Source: Chitinophaga pinensis (lineage in GTDB: Bacteria > Pseudomonadota > Gammaproteobacteria > Xanthomonadales > Xanthomonadaceae). Taken from it: a stretch of DNA of 64,000 nt. Position 1 is the stretch's first letter. Each line of letters begins with the position of its first letter. Shown here one piece after another: positions 2,226-50,374 of the stretch. Both the position numbers and the translations under genes were made by a program. The stretch covers positions 40,464 through 104,463 of the forward strand of contig CALRWS020000012.1 of NCBI GenBank assembly GCA_943371935.1. Reading direction: 5' to 3'. Under the pieces are notes generated by a model. The model did not search any database and was not told where the DNA came from. It saw only the letters and a program-made list of their open reading frames with translations.

Positions 2226-4031
2226 TCACTTGCTGTCCATCTGCAGCACGGCGAGGAAGGCTTCCTGCGGGATTTCCACCCGCCCGACCTGCTTCATCCG
2301 CTTCTTGCCTTCCTTCTGTTTTTCCAGCAGTTTCTTCTTGCGGCTGATGTCGCCGCCATAGCACTTGGCCAGCACGTTCTTGCGCAGCGCCTTGACGGTG
2401 CTGCGGGAAATGATCTGCGAACCGACCGCGGCCTGGATCGCGACGTCGAACATCTGCCGCGGAATCAGGTCCTTCATCTTCTCGCACAGTTCGCGCCCGC
2501 GACGGTCGGCGTAGCTGCGATGGACGATGATCGACAGCGCATCGACCTTGTCGCCATTGATCAGCGTGTCCACGCGCACGAACGGGCCGGCATCGAAGCG
2601 CAGGAAGTGATAATCCAGCGACGCATACCCGCGCGACACCGACTTCAGCTTGTCGAAGAAATCCAGCACCACTTCCGCCATCGGCAGTTCGTAGCTGATC
2701 TGCACCTGGCCGCCAAGATAGTTGATGCCGATCTGCGAGCCGCGCTTCTCTTCGCACAGGGTGATGCAGTTGCCGACGTAGTCAGGCGGCGTGAGGATGT
2801 TCGCGCGGATGATCGGTTCGCGGACTTCCTGGATGTGATTGGTCGGCGGCAGTTTGGCCGGGTTGTCCAGCGGCATCACCGTGCCGTCGGTCTTCAGCAC
2901 TTCGTACACCACGGTGGGCGCGGTGCTGATCAGATTGAGGTTGTACTCGCGCTCCAGGCGTTCCTGCACGATTTCCATGTGCAGCATGCCCAGGAAGCCG
3001 CAGCGGAAGCCGAAGCCCATCGCCTCGGAGCTTTCGGGCTCGAAGCGCAGCGCGGCGTCGTTGAGCTGCAGCTTGTCCAGCGCTTCGCGAAGGTCCGGGT
3101 AATCCTCGGCATCGACCGGGAACAGACCGGCGAACACGCGCGGCTGCATTTCCTGGAAACCCGGCAGCGGCTTGTCGGCAGGATCGCTGGCCAGCGTGAG
3201 GGTGTCGCCGACCGGCGCGCCATGGACGTCCTTGATACTGGCGTTGATCCAGCCCACTTCGCCCGCGCCGAGCTTCTTCAGCTCCTTGCGCTTGGGCGTG
3301 AACACGCCGACCTTGTCGACCAGATGGGTGCGGCCGGTGGTCATCACCAGGATCTTGGTGCCGGGCACGATCTCGCCCTGCATGACCCGGACCAGCGAGA
3401 CCACGCCGAGGTAGTTGTCGAACCACGAGTCGATGATCAGCGCCTGCAGCTTGTCGGTATCGCGCGGCTTGGGCGGCGGGATGCGGTGGACGATGGCTTC
3501 CAGCACATCGATCACGTTCAGGCCGGTCTTGGCGCTGATCGCGACCGCGTCGGTGGCGTCGATGCCGATGACGGCCTCGATTTCGGCCTTGGCGCGGTCG
3601 ATGTCGGCAGTCGGCAGGTCGATCTTGTTGAGGACCGGCACCACTTCCAGGCCCTGCTCGACGGCGGTGTAGCAGTTGGCGACCGACTGCGCCTCGACGC
3701 CCTGGGCGGCATCCACCACCAGCAGCGCGCCTTCGCAGGCGGCCAGCGAGCGGCTGACTTCGTAGCTGAAGTCGACGTGGCCGGGGGTGTCGATGAAGTT
3801 GAGCTGGTAGGTCTGCCCGTCCTTGGCCTTGTAGGGCAAGGACACGGACTGGGCCTTGATGGTGATGCCGCGCTCGCGCTCGATCGGGTTCGAGTCGAGC
3901 ACCTGCGCCTCCATCTCGCGCGCCTCCAGCCCGCCGCACAATTGAATGATGCGGTCGGCGAGCGTGGACTTGCCGTGATCGACGTGGGCGATGATGGAAA
4001 AGTTGCGGATGTTCCGCATTGCGTCAGACAT
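2226..4031 (-). CDS. lepA: Elongation factor 4 (LepA)
   Basis: [27 protein letters not shown]-terminal [18 protein letters not shown]. Confidence 0.99.
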
Positions 4032-7717: not shown

Positions 7718-9787
7718 ATGACCTCCACCTCACCCAGCTTCGACGGCCTGCGTCTGCGCCACTGGAAGACCGAATTGCGGCCGGACGGCGTGCTGGTGCT
7801 GTCCTTCGACCGCGAAGGCGAGTCGGTGAACACCTTCGGACAGGGGGTGCTGATCGAATTGAACAGCCTGCTCGAACGCATCGCGCTGGAACCGCCGAAG
7901 GCGCTGGTGCTGCGCTCGGCCAAGGAAAAGGGCTTCATCGCTGGCGCCGACATCCGCGAATTCCAGGAGTTCGACGCAAAAGGCACCATCGGCGACTCGA
8001 TCCGCCGCGGCCAGAACCTCTTCCAGCGCATCGCGGAACTGCCCTTCCCCACCGTCGCCGCGATCCACGGCTTCTGCATGGGCGGCGGCACCGAGATCTC
8101 GCTGGCCTGCCGCTATCGCGTGGCCTCGAACGATGCGTCGACGAAGATCGGCCTGCCCGAAGTGATGCTGGGCATCTTCCCGGGCTGGGGCGGCAGCGCC
8201 CGTCTGCCGCAGCTGGTCGGCGCCCCGGCCGCCATGGACATGATGCTCACCGGCCGCAGCCTCTCGGCATCGGCGGCGCGCGCGATCGGCCTGGTCGATA
8301 AGATCGTGGACCCGGCGGGCCTGATCGAAGCCGCAGCCGCGCTCGCACTCAAGGGCGTCGAACGCCCCTTCAAACAGCGTTTCATGGCCTGGGCCACCAA
8401 CACGTGGCCGGCGCGCCAACTGATCGCGCCGAAAATGATCAAGATGACCGCACGCAAGGCGCGCAAGGAACATTACCCCGCGCCGTACGCGCTGATCGAG
8501 ACCTGGCGCCGAAGCGCCGGCAACGGCATCCGGGCACGTCTGGATGCCGAGCGCAAAGCCGTAGTGAAACTCGCCGCCACGCCGACCGCACGCAATCTCA
8601 CCCGCGTGTATTTCCTGCAGGAACGGCTGAAGGGTCTTGGCGGCAAGGATCATGGCATCGCCCACGTCCACGTGGTCGGCGCCGGGGTGATGGGCGGCGA
8701 CATCGCCGCCTGGGCGGCGTACAAGGGTTTCCAGGTCACGCTTCAGGATCGCGAACAGCGTTTCATCGACACCGCCATGGCGCGCGCGCAGGAATTGTTC
8801 GCCAAGCGCGTGAAGGACGCGGGCAAGCGGCCGGAGGTGGCGGCGCGGCTGGTGTCCGATCTCGACGGTGCCGGCGTCGCCAGCGCCGACCTGCTCATCG
8901 AAGCCATCATCGAACGACCCGACGCCAAGCGCGACCTCTACACCGCGGTCGAGCCGAAGATGAAGCCCGACGCGCTGCTCACCACCAATACGTCCTCCAT
9001 CCCGCTGACCGAACTGCGCGAGCACATCGCGCGGCCGGCGCAGTTCGCCGGCCTGCATTACTTCAACCCGGTGGCGATGATGCCGCTGGTGGAAATCATC
9101 CAGCACGACGGCATGGCGCCGGACACCGCGAAACGGCTCGCCGCATTCTGCAAGGCCATCGACAAGCTGCCGGTACCAGTCGCCGGCACGCCCGGCTTCC
9201 TGGTCAACCGCCTGCTGTTCCCTTACATGCTGGAAGCCGTCACCGCCTATTCCGAAGGCATCCCCGGCCCGGTGCTGGACAAGGCGGCGGTGAAGTTCGG
9301 CATGCCGATGGGACCGATCGAACTCATCGATACCGTGGGCCTGGATGTCGCTTCCGGCGTGGGCGCCGAACTCGCGCCCTTCCTCGGCCTGCCGATTCCG
9401 GCCGCGCTGGCCGCACCGCCCGAAGCCGGAAAGCGCGGCAAGAAGGACGGTCAGGGCCTTTATCGCTGGGAGAACGGGAAGGCGCAGAAGCCGGAGATTC
9501 CGGCCGATTACAAGGCGCCGGACGATCTCGAAGACCGCCTGATCCTGCCCTTCCTCAACGAAGCCGTCGCCGCCCTGCACGAAGGCGTGGTTGCCGATGC
9601 CGAACTGCTGGACGCCGGCGTGATCTTCGGCACCGGTTTCGCGCCTTTCCGCGGCGGCCCGATCCAGTACATCCGCGACAGCGGCGCGGAGGTGCTGCTG
9701 GCCAGGCTGAAGGTGCTGCAGGCCAAGTACGGTGACCGCTTCGCCCCGCGCCCGGGCTGGGACAATCCGGCGCTGCTCAAACAGTAA
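7718..9787 (+). CDS. fadJ: Fatty-acid oxidation multifunctional enzyme (enoyl-CoA hydratase / 3-hydroxyacyl-CoA dehydrogenase, FadJ/FadB type)
   Basis: Crotonase GGGTEISLAC..IGLPEV, Rossmann VVGAGVMG, TNTSS, LHYFNP, PGFLVNR. Confidence 0.9.
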   Translation: MTSTSPSFDGLRLRHWKTELRPDGVLVLSFDREGESVNTFGQGVLIELNSLLERIALEPPKALVLRSAKEKGFIAGADIREFQEFDAKGTIGDSIRRGQNLFQRIAELPFPTVAAIHGFCMGGGTEISLACRYRVASNDASTKIGLPEVMLGIFPGWGGSARLPQLVGAPAAMDMMLTGRSLSASAARAIGLVDKIVDPAGLIEAAAALALKGVERPFKQRFMAWATNTWPARQLIAPKMIKMTARKARKEHYPAPYALIETWRRSAGNGIRARLDAERKAVVKLAATPTARNLTRVYFLQERLKGLGGKDHGIAHVHVVGAGVMGGDIAAWAAYKGFQVTLQDREQRFIDTAMARAQELFAKRVKDAGKRPEVAARLVSDLDGAGVASADLLIEAIIERPDAKRDLYTAVEPKMKPDALLTTNTSSIPLTELREHIARPAQFAGLHYFNPVAMMPLVEIIQHDGMAPDTAKRLAAFCKAIDKLPVPVAGTPGFLVNRLLFPYMLEAVTAYSEGIPGPVLDKAAVKFGMPMGPIELIDTVGLDVASGVGAELAPFLGLPIPAALAAPPEAGKRGKKDGQGLYRWENGKAQKPEIPADYKAPDDLEDRLILPFLNEAVAALHEGVVADAELLDAGVIFGTGFAPFRGGPIQYIRDSGAEVLLARLKVLQAKYGDRFAPRPGWDNPALLKQ

Positions 9788-10690: not shown

Positions 10691-11917
10691 ATGCACGACG
10701 ACACCCCGTTCGATCTTTTCGGCTCCGGCCCACCTCCGGCTTCGGGGAAGAAATCGCTCGCAGCCAGCGCTGTGGCTGCGAAGCGTTCGCCGCTGCAACG
10801 CGAGTTTGATCGCCTGACCGGGCAGATCGAAGAGCGTCAGGCATTGCTCGCCGCATGGCAGCAACAGCCGGCCGTGATCCTGCAGAAGTATCACGCGGAA
10901 CTGGAACCCGTCCTGCAGCAGCTCACGGATGTGCAGAAAAGCCTGGTCGTACAGCTCGACGCGCTGCTGACCTCGCCGCCGAAAGGTCTGCGCATGACGG
11001 CGCGGCGGCGCGACGCGTTGACCGACTGCCTGCTCGATCTGATCGACAACGTCATGGCGCACGGCGCCGACGACACTCTGATCGATATCCACGACCGTCA
11101 CAGCGACACGCCCATGGTCGAAATCGAGAAGGAGGATGAGGCCGAGCGGGAGGCGGAGATCATCGAATTATTCCGGCAGATCGGCGAAGCCGGTATCGAA
11201 CGGCGTGCGGACGAATCGCACGAAGCCTTCGTGGAACGCGCCCAAGCACGGCTGTTCGACGCACTGGACGCCGAAGAGCGCAGGAAAGAAACACAACGAC
11301 AAAAACGCGCCGACAAGCGCTCCGCGAAAAAGGACGCCAGGCGCACGAAGACGCCACCGCCGTCAGGCAACGACGACGATGCCGCATCGCCCAGGCCCGA
11401 CCTGCTGCGCGCGCTGTATCGCAAGCTCGCCAGTAACATGCATCCCGATCGCGAATTCGACGCCGACGAAAAGCTGCGCAAGACCGAAGCCATGCAGGGG
11501 CTCAATACCGCCTACCAGAACAAGGACCTGCTCTCCCTGCTGAAATTGCACAATCGCACCCTGCAGAGCGACGCCGTCGCCGACACGCTGGCCGAAGACA
11601 CCCTGCGCGAGTACAACGCGCTGCTGAAGGCGCAGCTCAAGTCGCTGGAATCCACGATCGCGCGCACCATCGAAGACGCCACGCCGCCCGCCATCGCGAT
11701 GATGCATGGCCGCATCAAGCGCCCGGAACAACTCGAACAGCTGATGGACGCGGACATCCGGAAGATGGCGCGCACTGTCGAAACCGTGCGCGTCACCGTG
11801 CGCGATCTCGACAATCCGAAACTGCGGGCGAACGTGATCAACGAGCTGGTGGAGATGGCCGAGGAACGCCGCATGCTGGATGCGTTCGACGAGATCGCGG
11901 GAGATTATTTCCGTTGA
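10691..11917 (+). CDS. Coiled-coil protein with internal J-domain
   Basis: LRALYRKLASNMHPDRE...EAMQGLNTAY: J-domain helix II-HPD-helix III; flanks are charged and helical. Confidence 0.75.
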   Translation: MHDDTPFDLFGSGPPPASGKKSLAASAVAAKRSPLQREFDRLTGQIEERQALLAAWQQQPAVILQKYHAELEPVLQQLTDVQKSLVVQLDALLTSPPKGLRMTARRRDALTDCLLDLIDNVMAHGADDTLIDIHDRHSDTPMVEIEKEDEAEREAEIIELFRQIGEAGIERRADESHEAFVERAQARLFDALDAEERRKETQRQKRADKRSAKKDARRTKTPPPSGNDDDAASPRPDLLRALYRKLASNMHPDREFDADEKLRKTEAMQGLNTAYQNKDLLSLLKLHNRTLQSDAVADTLAEDTLREYNALLKAQLKSLESTIARTIEDATPPAIAMMHGRIKRPEQLEQLMDADIRKMARTVETVRVTVRDLDNPKLRANVINELVEMAEERRMLDAFDEIAGDYFR

Positions 11918-11963
11918 CGAGTGCGATGCGCAACGTTCTGCGTACGCCCTGACCAGCAGGCGC

Positions 11964-12395
11964 TTACCCATACCTGCGCAGCTCTACCGTTTCCTGGACG
12001 CACCCCGCGGCCTCCAGCCATGCGTGACTCTGCAACGCCGCCACCATCACATCGCTGCCCAGCGCCAACTCGGTGTCCTCGGCGCGCTCGGCTAGACGGC
12101 GCAGGCGCACGAGACGCGGATGCAGCGCATCCGCCGCAGCCAGGTCGGCCTGCGCCGCGGCGAGATCCAGGTCAGGCACCATGCACTGCGGTTGCGCAGC
12201 CATCGCCGTCAACGTCCGCCGACAGAACGCCTCGGACTTCTCGCCCATTCTGGCCAATCCCAGCTGGATATCGGGCCGCAGCGAAATCAGCATGCCCAAT
12301 CGCGATTCCAGCGCATCGAGCGCCGCATCCACCGCCGCCAGATCCTCGGCAGCGAACGTCAGCGACAATCGCGCCTCCGACAAACGCACGTCCAT
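11964..12395 (-). CDS. Conserved xanthomonad-type hypothetical protein, possibly C-terminally degenerate
   Basis: LSLTFAAEDLAAVDAALDALE...MGEKSEAFCRRTL...DTELALGSDVM resembles a recurrent hypothetical family (from memory); tail looks divergent. Confidence 0.6.
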   Translation of the reverse strand: MDVRLSEARLSLTFAAEDLAAVDAALDALESRLGMLISLRPDIQLGLARMGEKSEAFCRRTLTAMAAQPQCMVPDLDLAAAQADLAAADALHPRLVRLRRLAERAEDTELALGSDVMVAALQSHAWLEAAGCVQETVELRRYG

Positions 12396-12710
12396 CCCAC
12401 ACCTCCCGTCGTTCACGGGCGAATTCCCGCGGTGCAGACAGCATCGCGAAACGTTGCATGCCCCTATATCGGAGGACTGCACGACATCGTGTAGGAAATA
12501 TCCGATTCGCCGCACAGCCCGTGCACGATGCATATCGCCAGAAACATCATTGCCACGGCAATCATCTGGCATGCGCTGCCCGGAGTCGGCCCCGTTTTGC
12601 AAAGGGGGCTGGGCGCGTGATCGACGTGCTTTGAGGTAGATGATCGTTGCGCTGCAACGATCAAAGCTTCCGCGATCACCGCGGCTATGCAGTGAGCGAA
12701 GCCATGAATG

Positions 12711-42538: not shown

Positions 42539-43078
42539 GTGGCCATCCAGATCGCGCTCTTCCGCGGCATCAACGTCGGCAAGGCCAAGCGCATCGCCAT
42601 GGCCGACCTGCGCACGATGTTCGAAGCACTGGGTTTCACCAACGTACGCACGCTGCTCAACAGCGGCAACGTGGTGTTCGATGCCGGGCGCAGTTCGGCC
42701 GCGTCCAATGCGAAAAAGATCGGCGATGCGCTGGTCGAAGCCACCGGCGTGTCCGCCAACACCCTCGTCCTCACGGCCGCGGAACTCGACGCCGCCGCGG
42801 CCGGCAATCCGTTTCTGGATCGCATGGACGACCCGTCGCGGATGCTGGTCGGCTTCATCACTGCCGGCGCCGATCGCGCGCCGCTGCAGGCACTGGTCGA
42901 CGCGGCCGCTGCGGAGGAACACGTCGTACTGGGCGCGGATGCGCTTTATCTCTGGTGCCCGGACGGCATCCTGGACAGCGCGTTCGGCGCGAAACTCGTC
43001 GGCCCGAAATTCCGCGATCTCATCACCAGCCGCAACTGGTCCACCGTATGCAAACTGCAAGGACTCGCGACAGCATGA
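42539..43078 (+). CDS. DUF1697 family protein
   Basis: ALFRGINVG...MADLR...GFTNVRTLLNSGNVVF...TSRNWSTV. Confidence 0.9.
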   Translation: MAIQIALFRGINVGKAKRIAMADLRTMFEALGFTNVRTLLNSGNVVFDAGRSSAASNAKKIGDALVEATGVSANTLVLTAAELDAAAAGNPFLDRMDDPSRMLVGFITAGADRAPLQALVDAAAAEEHVVLGADALYLWCPDGILDSAFGAKLVGPKFRDLITSRNWSTVCKLQGLATA

Positions 43079-43539
43079 CGAACGATCGCGACACGCCGCT
43101 CACCGCTGCCGAGGGACATGCCGAATCCGCCCTTCATTACGCGGCGTGGTCTGGCGACCTCGCCGAGGTGAGGCAGCTGATCGAAGCGGGGACCGACCCG
43201 AACCTGCTGGATTCCACCGACGAAACCGCGCTGTTCGGCGCGGTGGCTGGTGCGAGGATCGAAGTCGTCACGTATCTGCTCGCTGTCGGCGCCCGGCATG
43301 ATCTGTACGAAAGCACGGCCGGGTTTACACCACTGCACTGGGCCGCCAGCCACGGTGGCGTGGAAACGATGCGCTTGCTGATCGAAGCCGGCGCGGATCC
43401 CACCGCCGAAGACCATAGCGGCCGGTTGCCCGTCGATCTGGCGCACCAATATGGCAAGGGCGAGCACGTCGCCTATCTGAAGACCGTGGGGCCACCGATC
43501 GCGTCTAAGCGCTCCATTCCGAAACACGAACCCCGCTGA
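43075..43539 (+). CDS. Ankyrin-repeat protein
   Basis: SALHYAA..GD, TALFGAV, TPLHWAA..G, LPVDLA; ATGA overlap with DUF1697. Confidence 0.88.
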   Translation: MTNDRDTPLTAAEGHAESALHYAAWSGDLAEVRQLIEAGTDPNLLDSTDETALFGAVAGARIEVVTYLLAVGARHDLYESTAGFTPLHWAASHGGVETMRLLIEAGADPTAEDHSGRLPVDLAHQYGKGEHVAYLKTVGPPIASKRSIPKHEPR

Positions 43540-43730: not shown

Positions 43731-44153
43731 TCAGAACGGCTTCGCAAGCACCAGATAGACGATCGCGACCAGCACGAACACGGGAAGCTCGTTGATCCAG
43801 CGCATCGCCTTCGCGGACGGCAGCGCGCGGCCCTTGTCGACGCCCTTCAGCCAGCGGCCGCAGACGATGAAGTACGCCAGCAACAGCGCCACCAGCGTCA
43901 GCTTGGCATGCATCCAGCCGCCGCCGATATCGAAGTGCAGCCACAGCGCCAGACCGAAGACCAGCGCGATGCCGAACATGATGTGGCCGAAGCGATACAG
44001 CCTGCGCCCCATCAATACCAGCCGCTCGCGCACCGCCGGCGCATCGCCGACCTCGGCGATGTTGACCAGGATCCGCGGCAGATAGAACACGGACGCCATC
44101 CAGGCGATCACGAAAACGAGATGCGCGGTCTTGGTCCACAGGTATGCGGTCAT
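43731..44153 (-). CDS. HemJ/CopD-like (UPF0093) membrane protein, probable protoporphyrinogen IX oxidase
   Basis: YLWTKTAHLVFVIAWMASVFYLPR, GGWMHAKLTLV, RWINELP...LVLAKPF. Confidence 0.85.
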   Translation of the reverse strand: MTAYLWTKTAHLVFVIAWMASVFYLPRILVNIAEVGDAPAVRERLVLMGRRLYRFGHIMFGIALVFGLALWLHFDIGGGWMHAKLTLVALLLAYFIVCGRWLKGVDKGRALPSAKAMRWINELPVFVLVAIVYLVLAKPF

Positions 44154-44362
44154 CGGTGCTTCGGCATGCGGGGGGCGGATATCACGATAGCAGAACGCAT
44201 CCGCTGGCTCCGAAACCAGCCCGTCGGCGGCGGCATCGCCCATCGACTGTCGCTCGGTGTCACTCCGGCATGCGAATCGTTCTTGACAACGTCGATTAAG
44301 GAGGAAAATTGACTCCCAGCGTCCAGAAAATGCAACGGGCATCGCCTCCATGGAATCGCTGA

Positions 44363-44378
44363 TGTGACAAGAGTCGCA
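44363..44378. promoter_or_regulatory. CRP/Clp-like palindrome
   Basis: TGTGA-caagag-TCGCA, one mismatch to TGTGA-N6-TCACA. Confidence 0.45.
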
Positions 44379-44419
44379 TTTTATTCGCTTTCCGGTGCCA
44401 GAGGGGTGGGCCGGCATAC

Positions 44420-44436
44420 TTGGCATAGAAAATGCT
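44420..44436 (+). promoter_or_regulatory. Sigma-54 (-24/-12) promoter
   Basis: TTGGCATAGAAAATGCT: GG (44422-23) and GC (44434-35) exactly 10 nt apart, close to TGGCACG-N4-TTGCW. Confidence 0.65.
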
Positions 44437-44447
44437 TTAGACCCTGC

Positions 44448-44918
44448 ATGTCCAGCACAACACTCCAGAAGCAGACGACCGTGACATCGATGATCGATTC
44501 GAAGGCCGCGCGCAAGACAACGAGTACGCACGCAAGAGTGGAGTGTCAGTCCGTGATTGCATCCCTCGTCGAAAAAGCGCCCGCCCTCCGGTTCGCATCG
44601 GTGGCACTGGTCGATGGACGCAGCTTCGCGCACGCGAACAGCGCATCCCACGACGCCGATCCGCAGCGCTCGGCCGCGCTGATGAGTTCGCTCCTGGGCC
44701 TGGTCGAATCCTTCAGTCGCGAAGCGCTCGGCAGCAAGGCGCTCTACAACAGCACTTCGACCGAACACGGCTCGATCGTGATGGTCAGGGTACCGACCCG
44801 CGCGCAGATGCATACGCTGTGCATCTGCGCCGATGCGAGCGACAACCTCGCGATGACGATCCGCACGGCGCTCGACACCGCCGCTCAGTTGGCGCTGTTG
44901 ATCGACGCCGACTACTGA
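44448..44918 (+). CDS. Roadblock/LC7 (MglB-like) protein
   Basis: LRFASVALVDGRSFA...RSAALMSSLLGLVESFSRE...STEHGSIVMV; start either 44448 or 44490. Confidence 0.8.
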   Translation: MSSTTLQKQTTVTSMIDSKAARKTTSTHARVECQSVIASLVEKAPALRFASVALVDGRSFAHANSASHDADPQRSAALMSSLLGLVESFSREALGSKALYNSTSTEHGSIVMVRVPTRAQMHTLCICADASDNLAMTIRTALDTAAQLALLIDADY

Positions 44919-45047
44919 ATTCCGGTCTCCGCCGACACGGCGACCAGACTGGTTTATGTCCCAGGCATCGAGGTCTTTCCACTTCGATCGCTGGAAGTAC
45001 CACCGCAACTCCCTCCGCAACGTCCAACCTCCAAAGGATCCATTCCC

Positions 45048-45404
45048 ATGGCAAAAATTTCGCTTGAACCCCTGCGCGCTCTCGATGGTTACGTCGCCTC
45101 CGCCCTCGTCGATACCGAAAGCGGCATGCTGCTCGCGGGCGACGGCTCGGGCGTGGACCTCGAAGTCGCCGCCGCAGGCAACGCCGAAGTCGTGCGCTCC
45201 AAGCGCAAGGTCGCCAACAGCCTCAAGCTCAACGACACGATCGAAGACATCCTGATCAGCCTGACCAAGCAGTACCACATCATCCGTCCGCTGGAATCGA
45301 ACCAGAAGCTGTTCCTGTACATCGTGCTGGATCGCTCCAAGTCGAACCTGGCGATGGCCCGTCACGAACTGCGCACGTTCGAGAAAGGCATCGACTTCTC
45401 CTGA
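45048..45404 (+). CDS. Second, divergent Roadblock/LC7-type protein
   Basis: [18 protein letters not shown]...[10 protein letters not shown]...[17 protein letters not shown]...[15 protein letters not shown]; AAGGA SD. Confidence 0.75.
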
Positions 45405-45409
45405 TCCTC

Positions 45410-46459
45410 ATGCAACCGGTTCGTGTGAACAACCCCGGCGGGTTCGATCGAATCCGCCGGGACGTCAAGAGCCGGCCGCAAGGCCGGCTTTCCCCCGTAC
45501 CCACCATCGCAACGGTCATGATCCGAGCCGACATCGCCACCGCAGCACTGAACGAACAAGTGGAACAGCGCATCCGCATCGCGGCATCGTTGTTGCCCGC
45601 TTACAGGATCGGCGCCAAGGTCCGTCCGTGGGACGGTACGCGTTGCGGTCTACTCATCACCGATGTGTCCGACGCCTACGGCCGTCAGGCCTTCGAACTC
45701 GCGAAGAAGCGCGGCACGCCCATCCTCGCGATATCCGACAAACCGGTGGACATCGAAACCGAATGCGTCATCGTGTCGGAAAACAGTCCGGCGCCGGTGC
45801 TCGCCCAACATCTGCGCGAATTGCTCACGCGCGACCTGCCCGCCGAGAGCGCGACTGTCGCCGACGTCAACGACCACTTCCCCGCGCTGTGCAGAGTCGC
45901 CGCTCCCCAATATCGAGGCCGGCCCGTCGATGCGACCTGCAACGGCAGAACCATCCACATCCGCCCCGTCGAAGGTCGCGTCTACGCGAACACGCTCAGC
46001 GACCTGCTGTCGGCATGCGACTCGTTCTCCAGCAGCGCCTGGGAACTGCAGATCGCATCCGCATCGGATCGCGCCACGCCCACCGACGGCGCAAGCCGCA
46101 GTCTTGAAGCCTTCCTGCTGCAGACCGCTTTCCACGGTCGCGATCAGCTTCCCTCTTTTCCCGCAGGCCGTTACCAACTGAACGACTGGCCCGACGTCGG
46201 CACCGCGCCGGAATTGATCGGTGCGCTCAAGGTCGCCAGATCCCTGCTGCGCGCTCCCGCGAGCGAGCGCGAACTGCGGCTCGCCTGCGACGTGAGCGAA
46301 GAAGAAGTCAAAGCCAGCCTGTGGGCCTATCAGGCATCGAATCTGCTTTTTTCCTCGGACAACAGCGCCGACGCGATACGATCGGCGCCTGCGCCGACCG
46401 CGCTTTTTTCCGGAATGCTCGCACGTATCGCCAACCGGTTCGGACTGGTCAAGCACTGA
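45410..46459 (+). CDS. Hypothetical protein: degenerate receiver-like N-terminus, PATAN/DUF4388-like middle, wHTH, amphipathic C-terminal helix
   Basis: LLITD / PILAIS beta-alpha pattern; SLEAFLLQTA..YQLNDWPD; helical ELRLACDVSEEEVKASL; tail FSGMLARIANRFGL; start may be 45518. Confidence 0.6.
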   Translation: MQPVRVNNPGGFDRIRRDVKSRPQGRLSPVPTIATVMIRADIATAALNEQVEQRIRIAASLLPAYRIGAKVRPWDGTRCGLLITDVSDAYGRQAFELAKKRGTPILAISDKPVDIETECVIVSENSPAPVLAQHLRELLTRDLPAESATVADVNDHFPALCRVAAPQYRGRPVDATCNGRTIHIRPVEGRVYANTLSDLLSACDSFSSSAWELQIASASDRATPTDGASRSLEAFLLQTAFHGRDQLPSFPAGRYQLNDWPDVGTAPELIGALKVARSLLRAPASERELRLACDVSEEEVKASLWAYQASNLLFSSDNSADAIRSAPAPTALFSGMLARIANRFGLVKH

Positions 46460-46520
46460 CCCGCGCCATCCATATCGCAACCGGTCGGCACGAAAGTCCG
46501 GCCTTCATCGCAGAAAAGAA

Positions 46521-47060
46521 ATGGAACCTCACGTGGCATTCGACAGCGCAAAACTCGTATTCGCAGGTCCGGTCGGCGCGGGGAAGACAACCGCGATCCG
46601 ATCACTGTCCGACTTCGCCCCGATTTCCACCGAAATGCCCATGACCGACGGTCCGATGGGCGACAAGACCACGACCACCGTCGCGCTCGATTTCGCGCCG
46701 ATGCTGCTCGACGACGGCACGCCACTGCATCTTTACGGTCTGCCGGGCCAAGAACATTTTTCGCACATGCGCGCGATCGTGCTGGAAGGCGCGGTCGGCG
46801 TGATCGTGGTGTTGCCCGGAGACAGCGATCGCATCTCGGAAGAATGCGAAGAGTGGATCAACTCGATCCGCAGCATTACCCAGGATGCGGGGCTGGTGAT
46901 CGGTATCACCAGGACCGATCTGTCGCGCGGTTTCCGGATGGACAATATCCGTCACGCGGTCCGTCGCTGCGGGCCGCCGATTCCGGTCTTCACCTTCGAC
47001 GCGCGTGATCGCGAGCAGACGACGCATCTGGTGCGCGCGCTGCTGCTGACGCTCGATTGA
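46521..47060 (+). CDS. Small MglA-type (Ras-like) GTPase
   Basis: G1 GPVGAGKTT, G2 KTTTTVALDF, G3 variant LYGLPGQEHF, G4 variant TRTD. Confidence 0.88.
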   Translation: MEPHVAFDSAKLVFAGPVGAGKTTAIRSLSDFAPISTEMPMTDGPMGDKTTTTVALDFAPMLLDDGTPLHLYGLPGQEHFSHMRAIVLEGAVGVIVVLPGDSDRISEECEEWINSIRSITQDAGLVIGITRTDLSRGFRMDNIRHAVRRCGPPIPVFTFDARDREQTTHLVRALLLTLD

Positions 47061-47067
47061 CGGGCAG

Positions 47068-48015
47068 ATGAGCGTGCAGAGCCACGAAGTCGTCGTTGCA
47101 TTCCAAGAGGCCGATCTCGGCCTGCACAAGACCTTGTGCGAGATGCTCGATGAGCATCCCACGCACCGTACCGAACGTCGCGGCTGCGGCTACACGCAGG
47201 CGACCCGTTTCCTGTCGACCTACATCAACCGGCCGCGCGCCGCGGATGAAGCCTCCGATCTGGGGATTTTCGCCGACTGGCCGAAGCATCAGACCGAATC
47301 CCTCGCGCGCCAGGCGATCGCCGCGGGATGGCCGCAGGGGTGGCGTGGATTGCATCGGGCGGAGCCGGATGCGTTTCAGCGCCTCGCACCATCCGCATTG
47401 GCCGCAACCCTGGCGTCGCTGCCGACGCGGCTCGCCACAATCGAAACCCGATTGCAGCGCGAGGAAAGCCTGCTGCTGCTGCGCTTGATCCGCGGCATCA
47501 TCGAACCCGATGTTCCAGATGAGTACGGCAGGCCGAGCATCCCCGCGATGCCGGAAAAGCCCGAAATCGGCAGTTGTTCGCAGGCCGAGGAATTCTTTCT
47601 CGAAATCGCCCACGGCCGCATCCGTCGCGGCGGACGCGTCAATCTGTTCGTCGACAACGACGACCGGCCGCTGCTGGTGGAAAAGATCGGCCTGGGCGAA
47701 TCGCATTCGGCGATGGCAGTGGCGCCGGTCTCGATCTGCGGCGTCGCCCTGCCTCCCGGGGCGCTGTTCGCGCTGGCGTATCCGGACGATGCAACGCCAT
47801 TGCGCACGCTCGCCTGCGGACATGCCATGGGCGTGGATACGATCGTACAGGCGCGCTTCCTGCGACTGACATCGCTCGCGGTGTCGCCCCAGGTTCGGCA
47901 ACGCGCGTTCAGCGCGCAGCTCGATGCGCAGATCCGCGGCGATATGTTGTCGCCGCGGACAACGACGATCGAAGATCTGCAGACATTCGCTTCCGCCCAA
48001 CTGCGCGGCGGATGA
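47068..48015 (+). CDS. Hypothetical protein (family not recognised)
   Basis: 315-aa ORF tightly packed: 7 nt after the GTPase stop, ATGA overlap with the deacetylase. Confidence 0.75.
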   Translation: MSVQSHEVVVAFQEADLGLHKTLCEMLDEHPTHRTERRGCGYTQATRFLSTYINRPRAADEASDLGIFADWPKHQTESLARQAIAAGWPQGWRGLHRAEPDAFQRLAPSALAATLASLPTRLATIETRLQREESLLLLRLIRGIIEPDVPDEYGRPSIPAMPEKPEIGSCSQAEEFFLEIAHGRIRRGGRVNLFVDNDDRPLLVEKIGLGESHSAMAVAPVSICGVALPPGALFALAYPDDATPLRTLACGHAMGVDTIVQARFLRLTSLAVSPQVRQRAFSAQLDAQIRGDMLSPRTTTIEDLQTFASAQLRGG

Positions 48016-48899
48016 CCATGCGGATCGCCGCGTTTTTCGACGATCGTTACGCGCCCGCCGAAGAGCCCCTGTTCGCGCGGCTGGGCACCACGGCATCGAA
48101 GCTGGAGCGTCTCGGGCTGGTGGAGCTCAGGGCGCCCGCGGCATTGCCGATGCCGCTGCTGCGCGGCCTGCACGACGACGCTTATCTGGACGCGTTCCTG
48201 AGCGGTGAAGACCCCATGGCCTCGCGCCAGGGCATCCGCTGGTCGCCACGCGTCCGCGATGCGACGCTGGCGATGCTGGGCGGCCAACTGGATGCCGCCG
48301 AAGAAGCGCTGCGCACCGGCATCGCGATGAACATCGCCCGCGGCTTCCACCATGCCGTGCATGCGTCCGGCAGCGGATTCTGTCCTTTGAACGGGCTCGC
48401 GCTGCTCGCGCACGCCTGGCCGCAGCGCAGGGTGATGGTGATCGACTGCGACGAGCACGGCGGCAACGGTACCGAGGAATTCGCCGCGCGCCTGCCCAAT
48501 CTCTACAACGTCTCGGTGTTCGGCACGCGCTTCGGATGCCGCGGCGGGACGCGCTCGTGGGCCTTCATGGTGCGGGCGCGCAGCGACGGCTTCGAACGTT
48601 ACCTTGAAGCGCTGCGCGAAGCGGAAACGCTCGTCGATACGCATCGCCCGGATCTGCTGGTGTATCAGGCGGGTGCGGATTGCCACGAGGACGACCCGAA
48701 AAGTCTCACCGGGCTGACCACGGCGCAGTTGTTCGAACGCGATGTCGCGGTGTTCCGGATCGCGCGCCAGCGCGGCATTCCGATCCTGTTCGTGGTCGCA
48801 GGCGGCTACCAGGGCGCAGACCGCGTCGCCCGTCTCAATGCCAATACGGTGCGTGCCGCGCGCTGGGTGTGGCGGCAGCATTCCGCGGACCATACTTGA
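48012..48899 (+). CDS. Histone-deacetylase-family Zn amidohydrolase
   Basis: GFHHA, SGFC, IDCDEHGGNGT, YQAGADCHEDDP, GGY. Confidence 0.9.
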   Translation: MTMRIAAFFDDRYAPAEEPLFARLGTTASKLERLGLVELRAPAALPMPLLRGLHDDAYLDAFLSGEDPMASRQGIRWSPRVRDATLAMLGGQLDAAEEALRTGIAMNIARGFHHAVHASGSGFCPLNGLALLAHAWPQRRVMVIDCDEHGGNGTEEFAARLPNLYNVSVFGTRFGCRGGTRSWAFMVRARSDGFERYLEALREAETLVDTHRPDLLVYQAGADCHEDDPKSLTGLTTAQLFERDVAVFRIARQRGIPILFVVAGGYQGADRVARLNANTVRAARWVWRQHSADHT

Positions 48900-48989
48900 C
48901 GCCTCGCCGGCATCGGCCCGGCAGCGTCGGTTCGGTACGATCGTGGCGTCCACGACGTGAACGTCCCGGCACCAACACGGAAAAGACAC

Positions 48990-49778
48990 ATGCACAGCGC
49001 TCCCACGCAGACACTGCCGGTGCTGTTCCTCGGCCACGGTTCGCCCATGAACGCGATCGAAGACAACGTCTGGTCTCGCGCATGGCGCGCGCTGGGCGCG
49101 CGCCTGCCGCGGCCGCGCGCGATCCTGTGCGTGTCGGCGCACTGGGAAACGCAGGGACCGTGGGTCACGGGCAACGCCGCGCCATCGACCATCCACGATT
49201 TCGGTGGCTTCCCGCGCGCGCTGTTCGATGCGCAATATCCCGCGCCCGGCGATCCGGCGCTCGCGCAGCGCGTGGTCGATCTGCTGGGCGACGCCCAGGC
49301 GCGCATCCATCCCGAACGCGGCCTGGATCACGGCGCCTGGGGCGTGCTGAAACCGATGTATCCCGATGCCGACATCCCCGTGGTGCAGCTCGGCATCGAT
49401 TCGCGGCGGCCCGGTGCGTGGCACGTCGCGCTGGCCCAGCGCCTCGCACCGCTGCGCGACGAAGGCGTGCTGGTGGTGGCGAGCGGCGACATCGTCCATA
49501 ACCTGCGTCTGTTCGATTTCCGCGATGCCGCGCCGCTGCCGTGGGCATCGCGCTTCCGCGATCGCGTCAACGCGTTGATCGTGGAAGGCAACCTCATGGC
49601 GCTGGCCGATTGGCCGGCGCTGGGCGATGATGCCGCGCTGTCGATCCCCACCCCCGAACACTATCTGCCGCTGCTGTACGCACTGGCGCTGGCGCGCGAC
49701 GGCGACGCAGTGCAGTTCTTCAACGACGATGTGATCGGCTCGCTGTCGATGACGTCACTCATCCTCGGTACCGCATGA
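48990..49778 (+). CDS. ygiD: 4,5-DOPA extradiol dioxygenase (YgiD/LigB family)
   Basis: LFLGHGSPMNA, SAHW, TIHDFGGFP, RGLDHGAW, SGDIVHNL, PTPEHYLPL. Confidence 0.93.
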   Translation: MHSAPTQTLPVLFLGHGSPMNAIEDNVWSRAWRALGARLPRPRAILCVSAHWETQGPWVTGNAAPSTIHDFGGFPRALFDAQYPAPGDPALAQRVVDLLGDAQARIHPERGLDHGAWGVLKPMYPDADIPVVQLGIDSRRPGAWHVALAQRLAPLRDEGVLVVASGDIVHNLRLFDFRDAAPLPWASRFRDRVNALIVEGNLMALADWPALGDDAALSIPTPEHYLPLLYALALARDGDAVQFFNDDVIGSLSMTSLILGTA

Positions 49779-50374
49779 ACGCTCCCGACAAGACCTACGA
49801 CCGCGGCTATTTCGACCGTTGGTATCGCGATGCCGGCATCGGCGGACACCAGCGCCTGCAGCGCAAGGTCGCGCTGGCGGTCGCGAACGCCGAGTACCAT
49901 CTCGAACGCCCGATCCGCAGCGTGCTGGACATCGGCTGCGGCGAAGGCGTGTGGCGCGCGCCGCTGCTGAAACTGCGGCCGAAACTGCGCTATCTCGGCT
50001 TCGACAGCAGCGAATACGCGATCCGCCGCTACGGCCCACGCCGCAATCTGCATTTCGCGCGCTTCGGCGATTTCGAGATGCTGCGCCCCTGCCCGCCGGT
50101 GGATCTGCTGATCTGCAGCGATGTGCTGCATTACCTGCCGACCCGCGAACTCGACCGCGGCCTGCCCGGTCTGGCCGAGCTGTGCGGCGGCGTGGCCTTC
50201 CTCGAACTGTTCACGTCGGCGGACGAGACCGAAGGCGACGATGTCGGCTTCGTCGGCCGTCCGCCGAAGTTCTATCGCGGTCGCTTCGAAGCGGCCGGAT
50301 TCCGTTTCGCCGGTGCGCACTGCTGGCTGTCGCCGGCATTGGCCGGGGACGCGGCCGCGCTGGAAATCGCATGA
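49775..50374 (+). CDS. Class I SAM-dependent methyltransferase
   Basis: VLDIGCGEG, LGFDSS, DLLICSDVLHY; ATGA overlap with the dioxygenase. Confidence 0.88.
   Translation: MNAPDKTYDRGYFDRWYRDAGIGGHQRLQRKVALAVANAEYHLERPIRSVLDIGCGEGVWRAPLLKLRPKLRYLGFDSSEYAIRRYGPRRNLHFARFGDFEMLRPCPPVDLLICSDVLHYLPTRELDRGLPGLAELCGGVAFLELFTSADETEGDDVGFVGRPPKFYRGRFEAAGFRFAGAHCWLSPALAGDAAALEIA

Follow-up and report, generated by a model that had tools for sequence, protein, structure and literature searches.

The six-gene locus of the window

The stretch of DNA analyzed here (the window, 64,000 nucleotides (nt) of contig CALRWS020000012.1) contains, at positions 44448-48899, six co-oriented open reading frames (ORFs) on the + strand, which encode two Roadblock-like proteins (Robl1 and Robl2), a protein denoted P349, a small GTPase of the MglA type, an uncharacterized protein denoted Unk315, and a Zn-dependent deacylase of the histone deacetylase (HDAC) family. 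An earlier note on this sequence proposed that the locus was a new system, and this proposal holds in part: judging by sequence features, the first four genes are a Group 3 MglA system that is already catalogued (PMC4316618) and not new, whereas the new part of the operon is the attached last pair, Unk315 and the class IV deacylase. The features of the locus, with lengths in amino acids (aa), are as follows.

44154..44447, + strand: upstream intergenic region between the HemJ-like gene and Robl1 (divergent), where the operon promoter is presumed to lie
44448..44918, + strand: Robl1, Roadblock/LC7 protein (MglB/CvnB-type), 156 aa; Pfam Robl_LC7 match below threshold, profile matches
45048..45404, + strand: Robl2, divergent Roadblock-like protein, 118 aa; Pfam Robl_LC7 match below threshold
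45410..46459, + strand: P349, predicted 'DUF' protein of Group 3 MglA systems, 349-aa ORF; AlphaFold2 (AF2) model and homolog comparison
46521..47060, + strand: MglA-type small GTPase, assigned to Group 3, 179 aa; Pfam ATP_bind_1, Roc and Ras matches, motifs
47068..48015, + strand: Unk315, uncharacterized family, 315 aa; no Pfam or NCBIfam match
48012..48899, + strand: HDAC, class IV (HDAC11-like) Zn-dependent deacylase, 295 aa; Pfam Hist_deacetyl, E-value 9e-33

The stop codon of the GTPase gene ends at 47060 and the ATG of Unk315 lies at 47068, leaving a 7-nt gap (47061-47067), and an ATGA at 48012-48015 combines the stop codon of Unk315 with the start codon of the HDAC gene; the gene orientation, gap and overlap given in the earlier note are exact. 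The gene upstream, HemJ-like (43731-44153), is on the - strand, and therefore the six-gene block begins a transcription unit. A terminator scan of the region returns 4 sites in total compared to 5.7 expected by chance, and the single + strand terminator-like site within the block (48365-48378, inside the HDAC gene, with a 5-bp stem) is weak, so that the block contains no convincing terminator, in agreement with the earlier reading of the sequence. A consensus scan of the region, including the sequence upstream of Robl1, detects no sigma-70 promoter, and a search of the window for known RNA elements and tRNAs detects none.

RNA evidence comes from assembled contigs of wastewater and freshwater metatranscriptomes, which represent relatives with 90-99% identity at low depth. 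Together, these contigs cover all six genes. The deepest one (44547-45279) spans Robl1 and Robl2, two (46998-47213 and 46931-47085) span the GTPase-Unk315 junction, one (47986-48312) spans the Unk315-HDAC junction, and one, from X26, begins at 44388. These contigs are consistent with co-transcription of the block. In two freshwater metatranscriptomes, the word depth over Robl1-Robl2 (44547-45404) is 3-10 times that over 45466-48000; this drop after Robl2 may reflect attenuation within the block or an additional promoter, contig depth being a poor measure.

Conservation of the linkage and variant gene orders

A pattern scan with one genome per species yields 56 loci, all of which belong to Lysobacterales where the records name a lineage below the class (Lysobacteraceae, Rhodanobacteraceae, Ahniellaceae, Dokdonella, Tahibacter, Pseudofulvimonas, and others). 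The HDAC gene is located directly 3' of Unk315 in every locus whose contig continues, and all six genes are found in the canonical order in 37/56. In these 37 canonical loci, the distance between the GTPase gene and Unk315 is -11 to +20 nt (a 4-nt overlap in 12), and that between Unk315 and the HDAC gene is -23 to +20 nt (a 4-nt overlap in 17). The flanking genes vary between families, which identifies the six genes as the conserved unit. When loci are reached via homologs of the GTPase or P349, the Unk315-HDAC pair is present in 5 of 6. The connection of the GTPase cassette to the unknown protein and the HDAC, which the earlier note read from one genome, is borne out by the 56 species-level loci, five metagenome or assembly loci and an Acinetobacter plasmid; this neighborhood survey shows the linkage in many species.

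The six proteins evolve at different rates, Robl2 being the most conserved. The mean identity to the window protein over 17 distant loci is 83% for Robl2, 63% for HDAC, 62% for the GTPase, 52% for Unk315, 45% for Robl1 and 35% for P349. Across all loci, the identity of Robl2 to the window protein is 76-96%, and on the Acinetobacter plasmid it is 69%. Of 55 loci, 54-55 have intact HDAC catalytic motifs; in the GTPase, the P-loop and PGQ are conserved in 47/47 and DAR in 46/47, with the G4 pattern [NT][KR]xD found in just 34/47.

Several loci depart from the canonical order. In L045 and L046, the order is Robl2-Unk315-HDAC-P'-G'-Robl1', where P' shares homology with the C-end of P349. Locus L053 combines Robl1-Robl2-Unk315-HDAC with a second, divergent four-gene switch on the opposite strand, and four loci (L030, L042, L043 and L050) consist of (Robl1)-Robl2-Unk315-HDAC only; the neighbors checked in L030 and L043 are unrelated. 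Robl2 adjoins Unk315-HDAC in all reduced variants, so that the constant companion of the pair is Robl2, not the GTPase. All six families are also present on a conjugative plasmid of Acinetobacter wuhouensis (NZ_CP033119.1, loci L070/L071), which has 38% G+C and belongs to a different bacterial order; here, Unk315 and HDAC are 3 nt apart and convergent with a G-Robl1-P-Robl2 unit, with insertion sequence (IS) elements in between. Finally, one natural fusion protein (647 aa, a single representative) joins Unk315 to HDAC through a linker of about 55 aa.

The presence of IS elements around the plasmid copy would be compatible with the possibility that these genes have no joint function and are neighbors by descent or chance, or cargo of a mobile or defense element. 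Against this stand the co-occurrence of the six families in three gene orders and in two orders of Gammaproteobacteria, the natural fusion, the conserved stop/start overlaps, the varying flanks and the lack of a PADLOC match. That chance or inheritance alone would account for the three gene orders, the fusion and the occurrence in two bacterial orders is very unlikely, and the lack of any joint function can be considered highly implausible.

Some loci have additional features. On the Acinetobacter plasmid, IS1595 and IstB-like sequences split the cassette, the GTPase gene crosses the origin of the record, and a gene for a 1097-aa EAL-domain protein is located about 3.5 kb from the cassette. 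In one metagenome lineage (L061 and L062), genes for BLUF (blue-light sensor) proteins flank the cassette on both sides (3110-3595 and 8423-8854), and a further Roadblock gene together with a 311-aa gene is found 3 kb downstream (11523-12528). A 514-aa protein with a weak match to the Arf family of small GTPases is encoded two genes downstream of HDAC in L072 (9919-11463), and an extra P349-like gene directly follows HDAC in L025 (9967-11016), giving the order R1-R2-P-G-U-H-P. In L036 (8954-9439), an otherwise canonical locus, the HDAC match covers only about half of the gene, owing perhaps to pseudogenization or faulty assembly.

In the window itself, a 4,5-DOPA-extradiol-dioxygenase gene (NCBIfam E-value 1.5e-91) and a methyltransferase-like gene follow the HDAC gene on its 3' side (48957-50374) and share an ATGA overlap at 49775-49778. 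The possibility that these two genes belong to the module was rejected, as their synteny with the cassette does not extend beyond the closer Lysobacteraceae. Two overlapping + strand ORFs (42539-43539) lie upstream of the HemJ-like gene, one of which (42955-43539) resembles ankyrin repeats by eye. Two very long antisense ORFs on the - strand, 47376-49661 (761 aa) and 43731-45365 (544 aa), overlap the cassette and are unsupported as genes; such ORFs are typical of high-G+C DNA, and the 544-aa one appears genuine only in its last 140 codons, which are the HemJ-like gene. The window, part of a freshwater Lysobacteraceae genome, has a G+C content of about 65%. A species-level genome scan identifies uncultured Lysobacteraceae and Thermomonas as its closest relatives, and 99% of the sampled 31-mers of the region are present in a lake-water metagenome run.

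The proteins and their possible joint function

Group 3 MglA systems are a computational catalogue compiled by Wuichet & Sogaard-Andersen (2014) for beta- and gamma-proteobacteria (PMC4316618). The defining features of the GTPase in this group are a G4 motif without the lysine and the G5 motif 'DAR'; the typical neighborhood includes one or two MglB genes and an unknown protein with a predicted receiver-like N-end and a winged-helix-like C-end, and the Xanthomonas loci are tabulated as MglB>(-)DUF>MglA (PMC4316618). The window GTPase yields Pfam matches to ATP_bind_1, Roc and Ras (E-values 1e-8 to 8e-5), and its closest solved relatives are the MglA proteins of Thermus and Myxococcus (E-value 1e-7). 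It contains the P-loop GPVGAGKTT, PGQ in G3 (LPGQE), a G4 motif that deviates from [NT]KxD and lacks the lysine (TRTD), and the unusual DAR in G5 (FDARD).

The GTPase gene is coupled to two Roadblock genes, of which Robl1 is clear and Robl2 is weakly Roadblock-like. The Pfam Robl_LC7 match of Robl1 has an E-value of 0.034, below the Pfam threshold, and a profile built from 10 Robl1 homologs matches solved Roadblock proteins (9jue, 4e-10; CvnB5, 3leq, 6e-9; Rv3364c, 6e-8). For Robl2, the Robl_LC7 match has an E-value of 0.0018, again below the Pfam threshold, and the top match of its profile in the PDB is a Roadblock protein with an E-value of 0.088. Profile comparison detects no homology between Robl1 and Robl2. 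Robl2 contains invariant lysines, e.g., K52 in a basic patch.

P349 has no Pfam or NCBIfam match. Most of its homologs are 306-325 aa long, so that the true start of the window protein is probably the ATG at 45518 (313 aa). In the AF2 model (predicted local distance difference test score, pLDDT, of 81), a beta-rich middle domain separates a flavodoxin/REC-like N-domain from a winged-helix-like three-helix C-end; the model gives weak Foldseek matches to the N-domains of CpaE, a response regulator and flavodoxins; a DprA winged-helix (DprA_WH) hint appears at the C-end in 3/19 homologs. The model and these weak matches agree with the receiver-like and winged-helix-like ends of the Group 3 protein. 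The earlier note had considered this third protein PATAN-like, an assignment that has to be abandoned: a search of P349 and 18 homologs for PATAN (PF14332/DUF4388) returned no match (E <=0.1 for the window protein, E <=5 for the homologs).

The last gene of the block encodes a protein that contains the catalytic motifs GFHH, DCDEHGGNG, AGAD and GGY, including the His-His pair, the Asp/His/Asp zinc ligands and the catalytic Tyr expected of class IV enzymes. Its closest solved relatives are VcHdaH of Vibrio cholerae (9GKV, 4e-37; 131 bits), the Chlamydomonas clade A enzyme chrHDAC11-1/A (9RJE, 2e-26; 96 bits) and a clade B HDAC11 enzyme (6e-15; 59 bits), compared to about 40 bits for class I/II enzymes. 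The scores of 131 and 96 bits versus about 40 place the protein in class IV rather than in class I/II. The membership in the HDAC family proposed in the earlier note stands, whereas the term 'deacetylase' is too narrow for a class IV enzyme whose nearest solved relative is a weak lysine de-decanoylase. Indeed, VcHdaH is reported to remove decanoyl groups selectively from lysine and to bind decanoate in a foot pocket; its GG[FY]HH and GGY motifs are tied to this pocket, which accommodates longer acyl chains.

A 2026 study of class IV enzymes finds little or no activity on standard acyl-lysine peptides for the clade of bacterial and organellar enzymes that includes VcHdaH and 9RJE, and proposes non-peptide substrates for this clade (PMC13325672). 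This proposal, along with the lack of an evident protein substrate in the operon, raises the possibility that the window HDAC has a small-molecule substrate (e.g., an N-acylated amine or sugar, or an N-acylated lipid-linked compound), which Unk315 would bind or present, under regulation by the switch. In clade A, Thr replaces the gatekeeper Phe of clade B (F141 in the human enzyme) (PMC13325672). The gatekeeper of the window HDAC is Phe (ARGFHHA), as in the protein-deacylating human HDAC11, compared to Thr in 9RJE and Tyr in VcHdaH; the window protein thus lacks the Thr gatekeeper of clade A. Because the gatekeeper is not the Thr of that clade and because no biosynthetic or transport genes are conserved beside the cassette, a small-molecule substrate seems unlikely.

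Unk315 has no match in Pfam, NCBIfam or PADLOC. Its relatives comprise 439 sequences in 90% clusters, all unnamed or 'hypothetical', and 261 clusters at 50% identity. The AF2 model (pLDDT 88.8, predicted template modeling score 0.88) combines a helical N-domain with an alpha+beta C-domain; Foldseek finds no match to it in the PDB or BFVD (best E-values 0.48 and 0.78, respectively), and the Unk315 profile has no match among PDB sequences. This is a family of about 260 clusters at 50% identity with a confident model and no fold resemblance in the libraries searched. The family-wide invariant residues are G-x-C170, E174, K206, S214, R266 and R277, and in the model Cys170 is located at the N-terminus of the helix 170-181, which is followed by a beta-sheet. 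A Cys-His catalytic pair, considered as a candidate, is weakened by the absence of His213 in several distant members. Apart from the fusion to HDAC, the long proteins of the family have N-terminal extensions without a Pfam match. The distant relatives come from seven metagenome loci (L063-L069) of low-GC organisms (29-51%), where they stand alone among housekeeping genes; none of the seven has an HDAC, GTPase or Roadblock gene as a neighbor. These distant proteins have Ser in place of the first conserved Cys (RRGCG) but retain Cys170, and some of them (P0300, P0306, P0319 and P0334) have Glu/Lys-rich N-terminal extensions of 300-450 aa without a Pfam match.

The invariance of Cys170, Glu174, Lys206 and Ser214 throughout the family, including the distant members, and the position of Cys170 in the model would fit a Cys170-dependent acyltransferase, the mark of which is removed by HDAC, resulting in reversible acylation in or near the switch. 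The binding of medium-chain fatty acids by the nearest HDAC relatives and the existence of stand-alone Unk315 relatives, suggestive of an activity of their own, point in the same direction. However, no known acyltransferase or cysteine enzyme resembles Unk315 in fold or sequence, His213 varies among the distant members, and a writer fused to its own eraser would be unusual, so that this scheme appears quite unlikely. A narrower version, in which Unk315 would be a cysteine-dependent lysine acyltransferase of a new fold that, together with HDAC, reversibly fatty-acylates Robl2 or the GTPase, is more doubtful still and can be proposed only as a long shot. If true, such a writer-eraser pair acting on a Ras-like switch would be a prokaryotic counterpart of the control of eukaryotic Ras-family proteins by lysine fatty acylation.

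The interpretation that we favor, with belief and doubt about evenly balanced, is that Unk315 and HDAC form one deacylase unit that is docked on the G-protein switch via Robl2 and gated by the state of the GTPase. Under this hypothesis, the first part of the module would be the Group 3 MglA switch, consisting of the GTPase, Robl1 as a candidate GTPase-activating protein of the MglB/CvnB type, Robl2 as a divergent, very conserved partner, and P349 as a possible scaffold or exchange factor. The second part would be a two-subunit deacylase, in which Unk315 might serve as a specificity or regulatory subunit or as a carrier of the acyl substrate. Robl2 would attach the pair to the switch, and the nucleotide state of the GTPase would gate where or when deacylation happens. 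The case for a joint module is made by the conservation of the six genes, the tight spacing of Unk315 and HDAC, the fusion, the constant presence of Robl2 and the intact catalytic residues of the GTPase and HDAC; the contact between the two parts, the direction of control and the substrate we infer from these comparisons.

The same conservation would also be expected if control ran in the opposite direction, i.e., if HDAC, targeted by Unk315, deacylated a lysine of Robl2, the GTPase or P349 and so tuned the GTP cycle as an input. Robl2, the constant neighbor, has invariant lysines (such as K52 in the basic patch). In eukaryotes, lysine fatty acylation regulates GTPases of the Ras family and is reversed by deacylases. 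Nevertheless, the switch of Oleiagrimonas works without the pair and its Robl2 is equally conserved (80%), no acylation writer was identified, and the closest HDAC relatives have little activity on acyl-lysine peptides; reverse control is therefore rather unlikely.

For the favored arrangement, a deacylase unit docked through Robl2 and gated by the GTPase, there are also observations that weigh against it. Oleiagrimonas soli, the sixth of the loci reached via GTPase or P349 homologs, has an orthologous four-gene switch without the pair and an equally conserved Robl2 (80% identity), and the pattern scan detects no Unk315 relative in genomes of Xanthomonas, Stenotrophomonas or Neisseria. Hence the switch does not need the pair, and Unk315-HDAC is, as far as gene content indicates, accessory to a single branch of the Group 3 systems. 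The four loci reduced to (Robl1)-Robl2-Unk315-HDAC have no GTPase within 8 kb, and the pair may depend on Robl2 only. The putative Roadblock assignment of Robl2 falls below the significance thresholds. The stand-alone location of the distant Unk315 relatives among housekeeping genes implies that the family has an HDAC-independent function. Finally, the metatranscriptome contigs, of low depth and with possible DNA carry-over, also span the HDAC-dioxygenase junction.

Comparison with known systems

The first four genes resemble the described Group 3 systems in the G4 and G5 motifs of the GTPase, the coupled Roadblock genes, the DUF-type protein, the beta/gamma-proteobacterial host and the gene order of Xanthomonas. 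The difference is in the two genes added in tight coupling 3' of the GTPase gene, given that the published description includes neither a deacylase nor an Unk315-like protein (PMC4316618). The literature searched contains nothing relevant on a Roadblock/MglA cassette linked to a deacetylase in bacteria, and the claim of the earlier note that no such case had been described agrees with this outcome. Group 3 systems span many beta- and gamma-proteobacteria, including Neisseria, Xanthomonas, Stenotrophomonas and Acinetobacter, without a known output; the only phenotype found in the literature is that of an orphan mglB mutation in Snodgrassella, which affects colonisation and twitching. With its close coupling to the GTPase gene, the enzyme pair provides a concrete candidate for the output or input of such switches.

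Similarities to other G-protein systems are more limited. As in the actinobacterial conservons (CvnA-D, Mfp), the switch is a multi-gene one with accessory proteins, the Robl1 profile matches CvnB5 and Rv3364c, and the GTPase shares DAR in G5 with Group 2. Unlike the conservons, the cassette is found in another phylum and its accessory pair consists of a deacylase and a new protein. Membership in the conservons was rejected because the six proteins, along with 18 homologs of P349, include no histidine-kinase-like CvnA and give no match to DUF742 (CvnC). The MglA-MglB polarity module of Myxococcus and Thermus (Group 1) provides the best solved relatives of the GTPase and likewise includes Roadblock partners, but the sequence similarity is low, the G4 and G5 motifs are different, and the window cassette has two Roadblock genes and a third protein; a role of the cassette in pole-specific motility, predation or development, as suggested in the earlier note, is speculative. 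A known anti-phage defense system was also considered and rejected, PADLOC giving no meaningful match for any of the six proteins.

With regard to the enzyme, the operon is comparable to acuABC of Bacillus, in which a classical Zn-dependent deacetylase, AcuC, is encoded together with the proteins it works with and controls AcsA. Unlike the window HDAC, AcuC is class I-like, its partner AcuA is a GNAT acetyltransferase, and no GTPase is involved. The window HDAC shares the fold family and all catalytic residues with VcHdaH and other class IV HDACs (HDAC11). None of the deacylase surveys searched, whether of bacterial or of class IV enzymes, gives an operon or neighborhood context for cluster 5 or class IV enzymes. 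VcHdaH has been studied as a monomer, with no report of a partner found, whereas the HDAC of the window type is always paired with Unk315. Being always encoded with a class IV HDAC in these cassettes and once fused to it, Unk315 is an obvious candidate for a missing factor in HDAC assays. Genetics is made possible by cultured carriers of the genomic locus (Lysobacter hankyongensis, L. brunescens, Dokdonella fugitiva, Tahibacter species and Pseudofulvimonas gallinarii) and of the plasmid copy (a cultured Acinetobacter wuhouensis strain). One operon makes two questions testable, namely, the output of the Group 3 switches and the substrate of class IV HDACs.

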